From a virus (taxonomy: Duplodnaviria; Caudoviricetes): a stretch of 64,000 bases of DNA. The stretch is taken from the IMG/VR virus record IMGVR_UViG_2706796142_000001, positions 1 through 64,000 of that record; one strand, given 5' to 3'. Positions 1,513 to 45,800 of this stretch are shown here, in pieces. A program made the translations under genes and the position numbers. The notes under the pieces were generated by a model. It saw only the letters and a program-made list of their open reading frames with translations, searched no databases and was not told where the DNA came from. Within the stretch, counting starts at the first letter, position 1. Each line of letters opens with the position of its first letter.

Positions 1513-1717
1513 AGAATTGTATGTCATCGTGGCACTGGAATATATCTACGGTAAAGAGAATCGTGCAGTAGCAAGGCATTATCTTTATCACGGGCCAGCA
1601 ACGTTCGTAAGCTGTGAAGCTCTAAAAGAACTGCTGGAAGATGATGAAGATTATCGTTGGGATACCTATTACAACATATTCACACATGACGACTATCTAA
1701 AAGGTAAATACGAATGA
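1505..1717 (+). CDS. Hypothetical early protein
   Basis: GGAGG RBS, overlap-coupled to its neighbours. Confidence 0.65.
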   Translation: MTEELYVIVALEYIYGKENRAVARHYLYHGPATFVSCEALKELLEDDEDYRWDTYYNIFTHDDYLKGKYE

Positions 1718-39982: not shown

Positions 39983-40123
39983 ATGAGGATACTGATCTAC
40001 GGTATCCTCACGGTAGCTGTCGTACTCGCAATCACTTCAGCTATCGTGTCGATTGCTCCATACGTAGCGATAATCATCGTGATTGCCTTAATCGGCTGGT
40101 TCGTAGACAGACCTCCTAAGTAA
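39983..40123 (+). CDS. Small membrane protein (46 aa, not in ORF track)
   Basis: Hand-translated MRILIYGILTVAVV...GWFVDRPPK; AAGG RBS. Confidence 0.7.
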   Translation: MRILIYGILTVAVVLAITSAIVSIAPYVAIIIVIALIGWFVDRPPK

Positions 40124-40139
40124 TGGGAGGTCTTTTTTT
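40109..40139 (+). terminator. Rho-independent terminator
   Basis: AGACCTCC...GGAGGTCT plus T-run. Confidence 0.75.
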
Positions 40140-40206
40140 GGATGGTTACTCATAACCTCCTGCTGAAGTTCCTCCTGTTAATAGGCAGGAGGCGTGTTGG
40201 CGCACA

Positions 40207-40623
40207 GTGAGTAATCATCCACAAGGAGATCCTATGCTAATTGATCCAGAAGAGAATGAAGAAGTTCTTGTCTCAGGAATTATGCTGTTTGACTGTAATG
40301 AACGTTTGATGTGTCCTGACTGTGGCACCATTAGCAACAAGCATCTGTGCTCTGCACCATTCTTTTACCAGTACAAACACAGTCCATTTATAGGCCCACA
40401 GTTTGTCTGTCATCACACCTGTCATCGTTGTGGTTACAAAGATGATGTGGGAAGTGGCTTCACTGACTCAGGTAACTATGAGTCTGAAGAAACAGATGGT
40501 ATTCAGGAATGGGAAAAAGAAATCGATGAACTGGAAGATGAGCTTGCTATCTTAAAGCAGAAGTTGGAAAACGGTAAACGCCGTTGGGCAATGTTATGGC
40601 ATGTTGATCATGATGCAACATAA
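40207..40623 (+). CDS. Putative zinc-ribbon protein with C-terminal coiled coil
   Basis: CPDC and C.RC pairs; start may be ATG ~40234. Confidence 0.6.
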   Translation: MSNHPQGDPMLIDPEENEEVLVSGIMLFDCNERLMCPDCGTISNKHLCSAPFFYQYKHSPFIGPQFVCHHTCHRCGYKDDVGSGFTDSGNYESEETDGIQEWEKEIDELEDELAILKQKLENGKRRWAMLWHVDHDAT

Positions 40624-40637
40624 CGTAGGAGTTTACA

Positions 40638-40838
40638 GTGGAACATATCCCTAAAGAAGAATTGATTGTTGGTAAGCGTTACAAGGGTCGTTGTCGTAAC
40701 GCTACAGAAGCAGTATGGGATGGTAAACAATTCGAGTATACCCGTAGTAAGTTTGGGCATACATTTCAGGAGAAGATCTATTGTCCTGAAGATGATGATG
40801 TTTACGATGTGTTCTATGCTCAACAAGCTATTGACTAG
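40638..40838 (+). CDS. Hypothetical phage protein
   Basis: AGGAG RBS; GRCRNATEAVW...KFG...PEDD..YDVF. Confidence 0.7.
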   Translation: MEHIPKEELIVGKRYKGRCRNATEAVWDGKQFEYTRSKFGHTFQEKIYCPEDDDVYDVFYAQQAID

Positions 40839-40860
40839 CAACATAAGTTGGTAGTAGTAT
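40831..40860 (+). promoter_or_regulatory. Sigma70-like promoter of the tRNA operon
   Basis: TTGACT-18 nt-TAGTAT; tRNA-Asn starts 8 nt after the -10 box. Confidence 0.65.
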
Positions 40861-40867
40861 CATTTTC

Positions 40868-40943
40868 GACGGGTTAGCTCAGTTGGTAGAGCGATTGACT
40901 GTTAATCAATTGGTCATCGGTTCAAATCCGGTACTCGTCGCCA
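40868..40943 (+). tRNA. trnN: tRNA-Asn(GTT)
   Basis: Hand-folded cloverleaf, loop CT-GTT-AA, encoded CCA. Confidence 0.95.
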
Positions 40944-40949
40944 AATTAT

Positions 40950-41026
40950 ATTCCCGTAGACAAATTGGTACAGTCACCACACTTTCACTGTGGAGTTTGT
41001 GGGTTCAAGTCCCATCGGGAATGCCA
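40950..41026 (+). tRNA. trnE: tRNA-Glu(TTC)
   Basis: ATTCCCG/CGGGAAT acceptor, loop CT-TTC-AC, CCA. Confidence 0.93.
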
Positions 41027-41032
41027 AACAAT

Positions 41033-41108
41033 AGTCCTATAGTTCAGTCGGTAGAATACCTCCCTGTCACGGAGAAGGTCACGGGTTCGAGTCCCGTTAG
41101 GACTGCCA
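41033..41108 (+). tRNA. trnD: tRNA-Asp(GTC)
   Basis: AGTCCTA/TAGGACT acceptor, loop CT-GTC-AC, CCA. Confidence 0.93.
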
Positions 41109-41111
41109 AAT

Positions 41112-41187
41112 TGCTTCATAGCTCAGTGGGTAGAGCAACCGCCCGATAAGCGGTAGGTCACTGGTTCAAGTCCAGTTGAAGCAACCA
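41112..41187 (+). tRNA. trnI: tRNA-Ile(GAT), atypical C33
   Basis: TGCTTCA/TGAAGCA acceptor, loop CC-GAT-AA, CCA. Confidence 0.92.
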
Positions 41188-41189
41188 GT

Positions 41190-41339
41190 TTAGAGGTATT
41201 CAAGGTCGTTGGTCATAGTGGTTTTCGGTATAGCCCCGAACAACGTAAAATGATCCCTTGCCTCTAATCAATTCCGATTCGCTACCGGAAGACCTGTCAA
41301 CCAGACACTAACTGGTCAATTGGGTGAGAAGCCCATTCA
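41190..41339 (+). ncRNA. Predicted structured RNA A/B in the tRNA operon
   Basis: Nested stems TTAGAGG/CCTCTAA, CAAGG/CCTTG, CGTTG/CAACG, TTCGG/CCGAA, then three hairpins including TGGG-TGAGAAG-CCCA. Confidence 0.6.
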
Positions 41340-41345
41340 AATTAT

Positions 41346-41440
41346 GGAAGCTACAAACACAAGTAGGTCAGGTATTCCTTGGGGCAGTGTCTGACGTGAA
41401 AGTGGAATTGTGAGTGGTGAGAACCCACGAGCTTCCTGCA
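41346..41440 (+). ncRNA. Predicted tRNA-like structured RNA C
   Basis: 7-bp GGAAGCT/AGCTTCC closing stem plus TGCA end; T-arm-like GTGG-TGAGAAC-CCAC; long arm CACAA/TTGTG, GTCAG/CTGAC. Confidence 0.65.
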
Positions 41441-41445
41441 AATTA

Positions 41446-41527
41446 GGGGGATTAGTCAAGCGGTCGAAGACGGCAGACTGTAAATCTGTTATCCCACACG
41501 GTAGTTCGAATCTATCATCCCCCACCA
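41446..41527 (+). tRNA. trnY: tRNA-Tyr(GTA)
   Basis: GGGGGAT/ATCCCCC acceptor, loop CT-GTA-AA, CCA; unpaired 10-nt variable region. Confidence 0.92.
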
Positions 41528-41531
41528 ATTA

Positions 41532-41608
41532 CGGCATTTAGCTCAGTTTGGCAGAGCATCGGCTTTGGGAGTCGAGGGTCGAAGGTTCAAATCCTTCAGT
41601 GCCGACCA
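41532..41608 (+). tRNA. trnP: tRNA-Pro(TGG)
   Basis: CGGCATT/AGTGCCG acceptor, loop TT-TGG-GA, CCA. Confidence 0.93.
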
Positions 41609-41613
41609 AATTT

Positions 41614-41705
41614 GGAAGATTGGCTGAGTGGCTAAAGGCGTCCGGTTGCTAACCGGAAGGCGGTGTAACAGCTTCCCACTGGTTCGAATCCAGTATCTTC
41701 CTCCA
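41614..41705 (+). tRNA. trnS: tRNA-Ser(GCT)
   Basis: GGAAGAT/ATCTTCC acceptor, loop TT-GCT-AA, long variable arm, CCA. Confidence 0.93.
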
Positions 41706-41710
41706 TCTTC

Positions 41711-41787
41711 AGGTCGTTAGCTCAGTTGGTTAGAGCACCGGACTTTTAATCCGGATGTCATTGGTTCGAGGCCAATACGACCTACCA
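41711..41787 (+). tRNA. trnK: tRNA-Lys(TTT)
   Basis: AGGTCGT/ACGACCT acceptor, loop CT-TTT-AA, CCA. Confidence 0.94.
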
Positions 41788-41789
41788 AA

Positions 41790-41906
41790 TTACAGTCCAG
41801 CTTTCTTCTAAATGAAACTCTATTGTGAGTGACAAATAGATCCCCTTAGGGGTAAGGGAAGTTGATAACAATATGCAGTACCCAACTACTGCTGGACTGT
41901 AACCCA
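41790..41906 (+). ncRNA. Predicted CCA-ended structured RNA D (117 nt)
   Basis: 10-bp TTACAGTCCA/TGGACTGTAA closing stem plus C-CCA; GCAGTA/TACTGC hairpin; branched internal arm. Confidence 0.65.
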
Positions 41907-41987
41907 TTTCGGCTCGCTAATCCGAAAACTTGATGTGCTGCTTAACTGGGCTATCCCCCCATCCAAAAGGTTAACTGCACATCGCCT
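41907..41987 (+). ncRNA. Predicted structured RNA E
   Basis: TTTCGG-CTCGCTAAT-CCGAAA then GATGTGC/GCACATC with TTAAC/GTTAA and TGGG/CCCA. Confidence 0.5.
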
Positions 41988-42016
41988 GCCTCGATTGGTT
42001 CCCGTAAGGAACTACT

Positions 42017-42052
42017 AAACCCCTGCATACACAACTATGCAGGGGTTTTTTT
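42017..42052 (+). terminator. Terminator of the tRNA operon
   Basis: AAACCCCTGCATA-CACAAC-TATGCAGGGGTTT plus T-run. Confidence 0.88.
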
Positions 42053-42077
42053 ATATCTGAACCAAGAGGAAATACCA

Positions 42078-42575
42078 ATGAAGTTGAACCAACTGACTGA
42101 TGAAATCCGTCACATGGTACTGGGTGCTGCACAGCATGTGCTGGCTACTCAAGACGACCATGCATCGATGGATCGCTTCCTGACTAAAACCCATAAGCTG
42201 CTGGAGCATGAATTTCCTGAACCAGTAGAAGATGATGAGGCAGAGATCACCATGATTGCCCGTCTGTGTCACCAAGCGAATAAAGCCTACTGTGAATCGC
42301 TGGGGGACTTCTCTCAGCCAGACTGGGAAGATGCACCTTCTGAGATCCGTGCGTCTGCCATGTTCGGAGTTGAGTTCCATCTGGAAGCTGATCGTACTCC
42401 TGCTGAGAGCCATGAAAACTGGATGAAGCAGAAGATACTGGATGGCTGGATGTATGGCCCGGTTAAGAACTTTGAAACCAAAGAACACCCTCTGCTGGTT
42501 GATTACGACCAGTTACCACAGGAACATAAATCGAAAGATTATATCTTCCGTGGTATCGTTAACGCCTTCAAATAA
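42078..42575 (+). CDS. RyR-domain protein
   Basis: HENWM..K..DGW.YGP.K....K.HPLLVDYDQLP...K.KD; GAGG RBS. Confidence 0.85.
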   Translation: MKLNQLTDEIRHMVLGAAQHVLATQDDHASMDRFLTKTHKLLEHEFPEPVEDDEAEITMIARLCHQANKAYCESLGDFSQPDWEDAPSEIRASAMFGVEFHLEADRTPAESHENWMKQKILDGWMYGPVKNFETKEHPLLVDYDQLPQEHKSKDYIFRGIVNAFK

Positions 42576-42584
42576 GGGGCAGTT

Positions 42585-42776
42585 ATGGCAAAGGTTGTAG
42601 CAGATGAAATGACCTACGAGAATACCAGTTGGGAAAGTTGGCTGGTCACTTTAGTAGGTCTGGCAGAGGCACTGGGAGCTGATGTTACTGGTTCTGAGGA
42701 TGCGTGGTTTAGTGACTACAAATCCGGTCTTACTCCGGTAGAATCGATCCGAATGTTTTCACCAAAGTCACAATAA
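42585..42776 (+). CDS. Hypothetical protein
   Basis: Last + strand ORF before the convergent terminator. Confidence 0.6.
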   Translation: MAKVVADEMTYENTSWESWLVTLVGLAEALGADVTGSEDAWFSDYKSGLTPVESIRMFSPKSQ

Positions 42777-42806
42777 AAGAAGCCCCTCAAATGAGGGGCT
42801 TTTTAT
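42775..42806. terminator. Bidirectional terminator at the convergence of the two strands
   Basis: A-run, AAGCCCCTCA-AA-TGAGGGGCTT, T-run. Confidence 0.85.
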
Positions 42807-45800
42807 TTAGTGAGCCAAGATGTTAACCCAAGGGTTTAGCATCGGTGACTGGAGTGCTTGCCCAATACCAAGGGAATAACTCATTCGACCATCGCCCAAT
42901 ACAGTGAACATGTTATCTGTGATCGGTGAACCAATGGTGCCGAACAGTGTAGGGTGAGGAGTCATTGCACCTACCAGAGCATGTACCGGGTTGTTACGCA
43001 GCATGGACATAGCCACTTTTGCGGAACGGATCTTAAAGTTATAGAACCAGAGAAGACCCGTCTTTTCCATGTATCCACGGAAGCGACCCGGCAGTCTGTC
43101 ATAGTTCACATACTCTTCTGTGATACGAGACAGAGCATACTCAGTTGTCTTCTGCTGACGCTTAGTCAGGTGGTCAAACAGGATTGCTTTGGAGATGAAG
43201 TCACCATAGTCCATGGCTTTCTCCAGTCCTTTAAACAGAGCAGTATCCTGAGTGATCAACGCATAACGACCCATGTCACGAACTTCTTTCGGCAGCTTAT
43301 CAACCTTCTCTTCAAGGTATGAGTAGAGCTTTCCTGAAGTCAGTGCAGTCTCTTCACCTGCCAGAGAAGCATCGTTAATTGCTGAGAATTCACCCGCCTG
43401 AATCAGAGGCCAGATACTCATTCTTGAATGGCTATCCAAGATGGTCTGGATCTCAGCTTTCAGTTTACGTGTCTTCACCACATCCCCATTGGCTGCACGA
43501 AGTTCTGCTTCGGCTTCGATCTGACGTACACGAGACTTAGTGTACTTGTCGATCTCTGCCAGTTTACGTGGCAGGCCACGAGCAATATCAGCAATCGGAA
43601 CACCACGGCTAATCAACTGGTACACGTTACCCAAGGCATTCGATACCGGTACGATAATCGACTTAACGATGATCATGGTACGGGCATCATGAACCAAGTT
43701 CTGAGTAAAGCGTTCAGCATTGGTAGCGTACTGGTACGCCTTGTTGCCAAACATAGCCAGTGCCACATTCTTGGCAGTGTCTAAGGCTGATTTATTCCAG
43801 CGACTATTACCAGTCCAAGCATCACCAATTGAAGCATCGCGGTAGCCGAAAGCATCAGCCAACATATCACGGCGTACATAGAACTCTTTTCCGAACGTGT
43901 CTTCGATGTGCTCCTGTACTTCAGGGGTGAACAACGAGACTGCATCCGAGAGGACTTTATCCTTAGCCAGTTCCCTTGGATCCATGATGTTGATATACGC
44001 TGCTTTGTTGCTCGGATCATTAACCATGTCCTTTTCGTACATGCGATGCAGTGAGTCCACCAGTGCTGTGTTTACTGCACCAGCCCGGATCTCTTCGACC
44101 TGACGACCACGCCATACACCGATCATCTTCGCAAGGTTAGTTTCCTTGTTCAGACGAGCTGTCTGCTGTGGAGCCAGGGAACGCTCGTAAGCGATTACAG
44201 TACCCTTGTTGTTATAGACGGGTAGCAAATGCTCTCCAGTCTCACCACGGGCCATACGCTTCGTAATATTACGGATCTCAGTTGGATCAGTAATACGTCC
44301 GGCAACCATAGTGTGAACAGTGTTACCACTGTTAACGTCCACACCATTCACGGTCTGACGAATGTTCTGCATGATACCTTGGTTGAATACAGCACGACCG
44401 GATACCGGAGCATAGTAGTAACCGTGTTTACCACGATTACCCTCTGCACTGGATCCCTTGTAGTCACCCACACGGACATAGCTCATTTTGCTCAGACGAT
44501 CGTACTCAGCATCGCTGGCAACAATCAGGGATACTCCCTGCTGGTTCTCAGAAGGAATGTAACCCTTGTACTGGTTGAACTTAGCAGCAGAAGATTTATC
44601 AGCTTTACGCTTTTCTTCTACCTGCTGACCTTTCAGATAGGCCATGGCAAAGTCAATACCTTCGGCTTCGTTATCGACCAGAGTAGACAGGTCATAACGC
44701 TCTTTCAGGTTCAACATGTCCAGTGCATACAGACTGGTCAGTTGGTCAACCATGGCAACAAACTGCTTGTCCTTCAGCTTGAATCCCTTCGCAGGTTTCT
44801 CACCCAGCAGACGGGAGATAGCCTCAGCATTACGCAGCAGGTTCTGACCGTGTTCACCATTCATCATGTAGCCAGCCAGTTGCTGCATCTTGGCTTGGTA
44901 CAGATCGAAGTTATCTGGATCAGCATTCTTCAACTGAGTTTCAAGGTGCTTAACGGCACGTTTGAATTCAGACGGCTTGCTTATCAAAGTGTGGATCTCA
45001 TCATTGGACAGAGACTGACCCAATGAAGCCAGATCAGCTTTACCCAGTGACTTATGCAGTAATGTCCATTCTGCTTCGGTCAGGTCACGGCTGAACTTGT
45101 CTGCAATCACAGTCGGCAAGTGCTGACGGAATTGCTGACGATCTTGCTGAACCAGAGCATGAACAGCTTTAATCATGTCGTAAACACCAGCATTGGATTC
45201 GGTACGACCAACCATATCGTTGACCAAATCGAACCAAGGCTGTAGGCCACGACTACGGTTCAGAGCAGTCATCACACCATCAGCAACGTGAGCACCATTC
45301 TTCTCAGTAGCAATGGCACCGATCAGTTTGGCAGAAGAAGCCAACGCCTTAACATACTTGTTGTTGGACTTGTTCTTAACCTTCTCTGCTTTATCGATCA
45401 GACCAGAAGACAGGTCATCCATTGCCTGAACAATGTAATCGTTGGCCCGGTCAATGAAGCCACCAGCTTTAGAAGCGTACTGGTCAAAGAAGGTTTCACG
45501 GTTCTGAGCGATATCCAGAATGTGACCAGTCAGGCTATCAACAGCAGCCTGTACTGAATCACCACGCTCACCAGCCATGGTATTGGACAGTTTGTTAATC
45601 AGACGAGTACCAGTGTTTTCCAGCACAGCATCCAGAGTTTTGTCACCATTCAGATCCAGTTTAGGAAGTGGCAGTTTCGCCAGTACCTCACGCAGACCAT
45701 CGTTGACAGTAGCCAGAGCCAAGAAAGAAGGCAGCAGCGAAGAACGACCTGCTGTATCAGTCTCGGTCAGATAGTTACCCATCAGTACGTTGTATTTCTC

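Follow-up and report, generated by a model that had tools for sequence, protein, structure and literature searches.

What does a phage keep between the last tRNA of its tRNA operon and the operon terminator? In the 64,000-nt stretch of phage DNA analysed here (the window; its source record, a virus genome, has 75,147 bp), this interval is ~230 nt long, contains no ORF and carries, right behind tRNA-Lys, a 117-nt element at 41790-41906 that we call RNA D. A first-pass annotation had read RNA D as a branched RNA with a functional encoded CCA, comparable to the stable RNAs of T4 and T5 and acting as an aminoacylatable tRNA mimic or as a tRNA decoy. Judged from sequence comparison, RNA D is a real and conserved structured non-coding RNA module of the plus strand, with borders like those of a tRNA and a body that is not a tRNA.

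RNA D lies within a tRNA operon

Over the region, the best DNA matches of the window are N4-like phages of Erwinia amylovora from the genus Johnsonvirus, namely Rexella (95%), Ea9-2 (91%) and Tellus (98%). The operon starts with a sigma-70-like promoter found by promoter scan (TTGACT-18-TAGTAT, 40831-40860, plus strand), 8 nt 5′ of tRNA-Asn. The tRNAs Asn, Glu, Asp and Ile follow, then a 258-nt gap, the tRNAs Tyr, Pro, Ser and Lys, the interval without an ORF and an intrinsic terminator (42017-42048, plus strand), recognized by inverted-repeat and terminator evidence. Every one of the eight tRNAs has an encoded CCA. That of the last, tRNA-Lys(UUU) (41711-41787, plus strand, tRNA search), is at 41785-41787. 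Downstream of the operon are the gene for a RyR-domain protein and a convergent gene for the 3,523-aa virion RNA polymerase.

RNA D is on the strand of the tRNAs, within this single promoter-to-terminator unit. The scan of 40100-42900 found the operon promoter as the sole promoter-like site, and none directly 5′ of RNA D. The GenBank records of the relatives carry no annotation over RNA D.

The tRNA content of the operon varies among close relatives, with tRNA-Pro unannotated in Rexella, Ea9-2 and Tellus. The Tyr-Ser interval is a 5-nt spacer in Rexella; Ea9-2 and Tellus have extra unannotated gaps of 103 nt and 222 nt, and module C (41346-41440) is missing from both.

A diverged homologue exists in phiEaP8 and Fifi051

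The Rexella copy of RNA D is identical to that of the window. Ea9-2 and Tellus share a second version with seven differences, six of which cluster at 41826-41832 in one hairpin and lengthen its stem in the minimum-energy fold, the seventh turning C-CCA into C-CUA. Mean column identity in Rexella, Ea9-2 and Tellus is 97%.

Beyond these close copies, we took 34 N4-like loci from IMG/VR, with the C-terminus of the virion RNA polymerase as anchor, and ran a covariance model built on the four close copies over 336 kb. Exactly one of the 34 loci matched, that of Erwinia phage phiEaP8 (locus L078, 8262-8367, minus strand; 30.4 bits, E ~1e-4). The same copy is carried by Fifi051. Across models the phiEaP8 match scores 30-35 bits (E about 1e-4 to 1e-6), and a local alignment of the window and phiEaP8 copies scores 30 compared to 10 ± 2 for shuffled sequences (z = 10, 0 of 2000). 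On the opposite strand, the covariance model gives 13.5 bits for phiEaP8 instead of 30.4. This much lower minus-strand score, together with the G.U pairs of the fold, speaks for an RNA of the plus strand and against a DNA site.

The fold is closed by a 12-bp helix

The terminal helix of RNA D, P1, is a perfect 12 bp (41790-41801/41891-41902) with a pairing probability of ~1. The 64-kb window has just two perfect inverted repeats that are non-palindromic, at least 12 nt long and within 150 nt, namely P1 and the operon terminator. By our own rough estimate ~0.6 such repeats are expected per window by chance, so the inverted repeat by itself is not decisive. The folding energy of the 117-mer is -38.5 kcal/mol compared to -23.9 ± 3.2 kcal/mol for shuffled sequences (z = -4.6, 0 of 200). 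In the modelled fold of this single sequence, P1 is firm and the interior is ambiguous.

Folded alone, the phiEaP8 RNA adopts the same architecture, in which 13 bp close an inner helix and a hairpin with a GGGG loop. It scores 35.2 bits with the minimum-energy-type fold compared to 30.4 bits with the RNAalifold consensus fold, the interior of which includes a CUAUUG/CAAAUAG-type hairpin resembling that of the first-pass annotation. On an alignment that is fitted to the tested fold and contains three distinct sequences, in effect one divergence, the fold made of P1, H2, H3 and H4 has 94.6% of cells paired and six double-sided pair changes (three in P1, one in H2 and two adjacent ones in H4). 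Slid controls reach 27-43% paired cells with no double change, and one of 500 shuffles reaches the observed value. As far as sequence comparison goes, the diverged homologue in phiEaP8 and Fifi051 settles the fold of P1, H2 and H4, which we regard as established along with the unit, its borders and its conservation; H3 and the 3′ junction region are uncertain. A significant homologue with compensatory changes rules out a chance origin.

Both strands of P1 (5′ strand 41790-41801, 3′ strand 41891-41902, plus strand) are supported by fold, inverted repeat and alignment, the helix differing from phiEaP8 by its three compensatory double changes with all cells paired. Inside it, fold and alignment define an inner domain (41807-41840, plus strand) in which helix H2 (41807-41810/41837-41840), with one compensatory double change relative to phiEaP8, bears hairpin H3 (41817-41820/41827-41830). 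H3 is the weakest helix, with 75% of cells paired, and is lengthened by the Ea9-2 and Tellus changes; 41826-41832, the sole variable patch among close relatives, lies inside this domain. The next hairpin, H4 (41843-41858, plus strand; stem 41843-41848/41853-41858, probability ~0.7), is CCCUUA[GGGG]UAAGGG with an invariant GGGG loop. Its phiEaP8 form, CCCGCA[GGGG]UGCGAG, has the two adjacent compensatory double changes and one C.A mismatch.

H4 is followed by an A-rich segment, AAGUUGAUAACAAUA (41859-41873, plus strand; AAGUCAUAACAAUA in phiEaP8), which is conserved, mostly single-stranded and a candidate binding surface. Conservation of primary sequence falls on AGAUCCC, the GGGG loop, GAAGU, AUAACAAUA and CUACU. 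No complementary (antisense) target of the conserved AUAACAAUA strand was found in the window. Last comes a lineage-specific hairpin, GCAGUA-CCCAAC-UACUGC (41875-41892, plus strand, probability ~0.3), which competes with the last 2 bp of P1. About 12 nt (UGCAGUACCCAA), most of this hairpin, are missing in phiEaP8 and Fifi051, and neither has a counterpart of it.

The first-pass annotation had drawn another interior. Its complementary segments are all present, but the fold that it built from them comes to -29.9 kcal/mol, 8.6 kcal/mol worse than -38.5 kcal/mol. The proposed 8-bp arm (41800-41807/41855-41862) has a probability of ~0.1 and three of its eight pairs are broken in phiEaP8, where the proposed CTATT/AATAG hairpin has no counterpart either. 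For the CCCC-TTA-GGGG hairpin the probability is 0.13 compared to ~0.7 for the alternative CCCUUA[GGGG]UAAGGG. The 41875-41892 hairpin had been likened to a T-arm; its CCCAAC loop lacks the T-loop sequence, its probability is low (~0.3) and the phiEaP8 homologue has it deleted, which speaks against the analogy. Homologue covariation, named there as a check, is indeed found, as six compensatory double changes in a non-tRNA fold.

A loop-strand pseudoknot, UAUUGU/ACAAUA, is possible in the window copy. It was dropped, the phiEaP8 copy having no UAUUG for its ACAAUA.

The borders of RNA D resemble those of tRNAs

RNA D begins 2 nt (AA) past the CCA of tRNA-Lys, exactly where the first-pass annotation had placed its start. 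Its first ten nucleotides, TTACAGTCCA (41790-41799), are complementary to TGGACTGTAA (41893-41902), and C-CCA (41903-41906, plus strand) comes next. This pairing and tail had been described as a 10-bp stem followed by C-CCA; both are there, but the helix is really the 12 bp of P1.

The 5′ junction is CCAAAUU (41785-41791, plus strand), the same motif as at the Asn/Glu, Asp/Ile and Pro/Ser tRNA junctions. AAATT is found seven times in the 1.2-kb operon (40860-42060) compared to 0.8 times per kb across the window, a 7-fold enrichment, and six of the seven copies are at or beside unit borders, usually as CCA-AAUU. At the 3′ border, an NCCA-like 4-nt tail precedes an A/U-rich stretch. In its sequence, RNA D has the shape of a hairpin-type RNase P substrate, with a helix, a single-stranded 5′ leader and an RCCA-like 3′ tail.

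In E. coli, RNase E cleaves tRNA precursors in A/U-rich sequence 1-3 nt past the CCA, with mapped examples in lysY (CCAG/UUUUA) and tyrT (CCAU/AAUUC), while polycistronic tRNAs can also be separated by RNase P and trailers ending in an intrinsic terminator are removed endonucleolytically (PMC2190699). Since the borders of RNA D have the same syntax as those of the tRNAs, we infer that it is excised by host tRNA-processing nucleases: 41785-41791 would be cut by RNase E, as an A/U-rich site after CCA, and/or by RNase P at 41789/41790.

The tail itself is C-CCA in the window and Rexella, C-CUA in Ea9-2 and Tellus, and CCAA in phiEaP8 and Fifi051. The CUA of Ea9-2 and Tellus shows that the encoded CCA varies even inside the genus, and with two of four close relatives differing there it cannot bear the weight that the first-pass annotation had put on it. 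Opening of the terminal U-A pair in the 13-bp helix of phiEaP8 would leave both lineages with "12 bp, N, CCA", the helix being as long as acceptor plus T stem in a tRNA, a likeness that is suggestive, not compelling.

Homology between the two lineages runs from the first helix base to the 4-nt tail and no further. In phiEaP8, the upstream neighbour is another stem-closed cassette and no tRNA, and the downstream sequence is unrelated. Homology limited to the helix ends, together with these other flanks, makes RNA D a separable module. By this comparison it is neither an appendage of tRNA-Lys nor part of element E, which abuts its tail.

RNA D was found in a few Erwinia phages only

The RNA D family was found only in seven Erwinia phage genomes, including the window phage, Rexella, Ea9-2, Tellus, phiEaP8 and Fifi051. 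A blastn search of 50,697 phage records with RNA D and element E matched Ea9-2, Tellus and Rexella and, for element E, a 31-nt stretch of Pastis; there was no other match. An exact 18-mer search of IMG/VR had no match, and RNA D was not found at the loci of relatives of the downstream RyR-domain protein. Three RNA D models, R1-R3, run on ~1 Mb of N4-like, T4-like and EP_H11 loci, recovered phiEaP8 only.

A degenerate pattern of the conserved blocks had no match in metagenome contigs, matched phiEaP8 alone in IMG/VR and gave two chance matches, rejected by the model, in 185,579 bacterial and archaeal genomes. The carriers of RNA D belong to just two small genera of Erwinia phages, so that it is dispensable for N4-like phages generally.

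Other stem-closed cassettes occupy the tRNA operon

The slot after tRNA-Ile holds module A (41190-41270) in the window and Rexella and unrelated stem-closed inserts in Ea9-2 (L002, 1335-1400) and Tellus (L003, 1265-1400), three mutually unrelated cassettes in phages that otherwise hardly differ. The flanking UCGCUA-loop hairpin and GGGUGAGAAGCCC hairpin are invariant around it. The slot inserts have stem-closed folds, start with UU 2 nt past the CCA and end with AA plus UCAA or UUAA. The cassette of Tellus is found again in phiEaP8, there in another slot, between tRNA-Asp and tRNA-Ile (L078, 8826-8958, minus strand), which indicates that cassettes are shuffled.

Another phiEaP8 cassette, X (L078, 8372-8468, minus strand; closing helix UUGAGUAACAGGU/ACCUGUUGCUCAA), shares 83-86% identity over ~100 nt with unannotated DNA of two coliphages of 111-116 kb, EP_H11 and IME392. 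The EP_H11 copy (L113, 6001-6101) lies between tRNA-Arg and tRNA-Met. Such matches suggest that RNA cassettes are exchanged horizontally between unrelated phage groups. Pairwise comparison shows no sequence kinship of RNA D to module A or cassette X.

There is a weaker match to cassette X in Pseudomonas phage nickie. The hairpin GGGUGAGARGCCC (41322-41334), with a 7-nt loop UGAGAAG that is T-loop-like (U-G-N-R-A), is invariant in four Johnsonvirus genomes and phiEaP8, and a copy in EP_H11 (L113, 5719-5731) lies 10 nt 5′ of tRNA-Arg.

Element E starts with a UCGCUA-loop hairpin (41907-41927, plus strand) that has a second copy at 41272-41290, after module A. The UCGCUA loop and 3′ stem are the same as in the 5′ hairpin of T4 rnaD and lie outside RNA D; this resemblance to T4 rnaD holds at the motif level only. 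The 41272-41290 copy has TCGCTACCGG..AAG in common with the T4 rnaD 5′ hairpin (L004, ~1640-1665, minus strand). The motif CGNNTCGCTACCGGWAAG is found in 58 IMG/VR contigs, including many T4-likes in which it opens rnaD, and also in a large group of shorter contigs (~45-50 kb where judgeable) as an apparent intergenic leader. It may represent a common signal for processing or binding.

Element E was considered as the true homologue of T4 rnaD and then reduced to this resemblance of motifs. The two have in common only the UCGCUA hairpin and a short GGUUCCC..GUAAGGAA stretch that varies among T4-likes, and element E is not matched by the rnaD profile.

A helix of element E (41932-41983), GAUGUGC/GCACAUC, becomes GGUAUGU/GCAUACC in Rexella (L001, ~2170-2260), with two compensatory double changes, one wobble and a 23-nt loop insertion. 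These compensatory changes indicate that element E is also a constrained RNA structure. Erwinia phage Pastis (L005, 1753-2290) has a noncoding region of ~540 nt without tRNAs that begins after a terminator and has GGGCTATCAACCCA, CGCCTGCCTCGATTG and a UCGCUA-containing hairpin in common with element E. It is a candidate for a free-standing relative of element E.

Possible roles of RNA D

Co-transcription, excision, stability and any trans function of RNA D are what we infer. It would share one transcript with the eight tRNAs, begun at the promoter (~40831-40860) and ended at the terminator (42017-42048), and be released by RNase E after CCA, RNase P at the helix base and 3′ exonucleases. The product would be a stem-closed, exonuclease-resistant RNA of ~117 nt, one of the interchangeable stem-closed cassettes carried between tRNAs. 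Its closing helix (12 bp, 13 bp in phiEaP8) would enclose the inner helix-hairpin domain, the GGGG-loop hairpin and the A-rich single strand, and this conserved interior is most likely the working part, binding a protein or an RNA. That RNA D is excised as a stable RNA of about this length, with an interior that binds some partner, is the reading that we favour, at slightly better than an even chance.

The traces would be no different if RNA D acted purely in cis, or structurally, than if it acted in trans. RNA D lies between the last tRNA and the terminator, where a cis-acting spacer could insulate units by its fold, position nuclease sites and aid both the 3′ maturation of tRNA-Lys and the removal of the terminator trailer, a step that has to be endonucleolytic (PMC2190699). 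The excised piece would then be a functionless by-product, and the junction motifs that RNA D has in common with the tRNAs would fit, as would the ease with which cassettes at such slots are swapped. The phiEaP8 homologue does not adjoin a tRNA, however, and 3-6 nt suffice between most tRNAs of the operon. Moreover, interior helices and single-stranded blocks have been kept, with compensatory changes, which exceeds what a spacer needs. We give a spacer a limited but real chance.

The traffic of cassettes raises another alternative, that RNA D is selfish or decaying, either the remnant of a tRNA gene or a mobile element spread by recombination, with a helix kept as it is harmless when tightly folded. 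Cassettes are gained, lost and moved, are common to unrelated phage groups, and all start with UU and end with AA and a 4-nt tail ending in A; the narrow distribution of RNA D would also agree. Yet RNA D is single-copy in the genome, has no target-site duplication beyond a possible CCA and retains no tRNA signal for the tRNA model or ARAGORN. Selection on the fold of the RNA is indicated by its conserved loops and six compensatory changes, and we regard a selfish origin as improbable.

A quite improbable reading takes RNA D for a mimic of the tRNA end, a 12-bp helix with N-CCA and no decoding body, that diverts a host factor acting on tRNA 3′ ends or acceptor helices. Candidate targets would be a tRNA-directed defence toxin (a nucleotidyltransferase or an acceptor-stem nuclease), the CCA-adding enzyme or RNase P. 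RNA D would then be one item of a shuffled arsenal of cassettes traded between tRNA clusters.

The first-pass proposal, that RNA D is a tRNA decoy or a tRNA mimic open to aminoacylation, its encoded CCA being functional and one hairpin equivalent to a T-arm, is very improbable. It has on its side the tRNA-like 5′ border and the 12-bp helix followed by N-CCA in the window, in Rexella and, if the terminal U-A opens, in phiEaP8. Against it, Ea9-2 and Tellus have CUA, the hairpin put forward as the T-arm has no T-loop sequence and is missing in phiEaP8, and tRNA searches are negative, with no cloverleaf and no 7-nt anticodon-like loop. Charging of RNA D with an amino acid is unlikely, and it is not decoded.

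Barely credible, finally, are a chance inverted repeat, for all that ~0.6 are expected per window by our estimate, and a minus-strand small protein (ORF 41907-41782, 41 aa), which spans RNA D almost exactly but loses its ATG in Ea9-2 and Tellus and is stop-ridden in phiEaP8. The plus-strand mini-ORFs of RNA D differ among copies.

RNA D adds an RNA family that is unrelated to T4 species 1 and 2 and has a fold that is defined and supported by covariation. Its phage-host pair, Erwinia amylovora with its N4-like phages, is small and tractable. RNA D and its neighbours show such RNAs to be exchangeable cassettes whose borders follow one syntax; N4-like Erwinia phages have some of them in common with much larger coliphages. 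If even one cassette truly acts in trans, for example in tRNA processing or against a tRNA-directed defence, it would become possible to interpret a widespread layer of phage genomes that now lacks annotation.

Comparison with known RNAs

RNA D matches no described RNA family (Rfam 15). Searched at gathering thresholds and at E ≤ 10, the window had no Rfam 15 match over RNA D, with YrlA, skipping-rope and other tRNA mimics among the families covered; these searches, and those of the phiEaP8 and EP_H11 loci at E ≤ 0.1, gave only tRNAs and noise. The cmsearch check named in the first-pass annotation accordingly returned neither a tRNA nor another Rfam family. The tRNA covariance model (RF00005) has no match at E ≤ 10 in 41790-41906, and neither the window copy nor that of phiEaP8 is detected by ARAGORN, whether run by default, with introns allowed or at 70% thresholds. 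For tmRNA, ARAGORN in tmRNA mode at 70% and Rfam are both negative, and the plus-strand mini-ORFs are not conserved.

Like a tRNA, RNA D has a terminal helix that joins its 5′ and 3′ ends, here 12 bp or the length of acceptor plus T stem, with an unpaired N and CCA in the window copy and a tRNA-type 5′ junction. Unlike a tRNA, it has no D, anticodon or T arm and no T-loop; the helix is 12-13 bp instead of 7, opens into a multi-branch junction and is followed by a CCA that is not conserved. With no cloverleaf, anticodon-like loop or T-loop, and no match to the tRNA model or by ARAGORN, the charging that had been suggested finds no footing. To our knowledge, the U1:A72/C73 end of RNA D fits no known E. 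coli identity set.

The species 1 and 2 RNAs of T4 have been known since the 1970s. In T4, tRNA-Arg is followed after 1 nt by rnaD (species 2 RNA, 119 nt) and after a further 6 nt by rnaC (species 1 RNA, 139 nt), and RNA D, 2 nt after tRNA-Lys and on the same strand in the window, is placed alike. RNA D resembles both as a small non-tRNA RNA at the 3′ end of a phage tRNA cluster, co-transcribed with tRNAs in T4 and putatively so here. A relationship to them finds no support, however: nhmmer profiles of 13 T4-like rnaD and 6 rnaC sequences match neither RNA D nor the rest of the operon, models R1-R3 do not match the T4 locus, and pairwise comparison of RNA D gives z = 0.5 (rnaD) and z = 2.1 (rnaC). 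T4 rnaD also has an encoded CCA next to it, which varies among T4-likes (ACCG, ACAG or ACCT). T4 rnaC has a canonical T-arm (GGGUUCGAAUCCC) near its 3′ end and RNA D has none. In phiEaP8 the position differs, with the RNA D homologue following another cassette, unlike T4 rnaD. The roles of the T4 rnaD and rnaC RNAs are still unknown (PMC3014915, PMC9697503, PMC12685909).

A minimal RNase P substrate consists of a stem, a short single-stranded leader at its 5′ strand and an RCCA-like tail at its 3′ strand. Non-tRNA substrates of bacterial RNase P include the precursors of 4.5S RNA and tmRNA and the C4 antisense RNA of phages P1 and P7. RNA D has this shape in common with them and no sequence relationship, and its cleavage is a prediction only.

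In border syntax, RNA D is like the other stem-closed cassettes placed between tRNAs, which start with UU 2-6 nt after the previous unit, have a closing helix of 7-14 bp and end with AA and a 4-nt tail ending in A. Among them, RNA D is the sole one with N-CCA, and it is stable across Johnsonvirus whereas slot A has been swapped.
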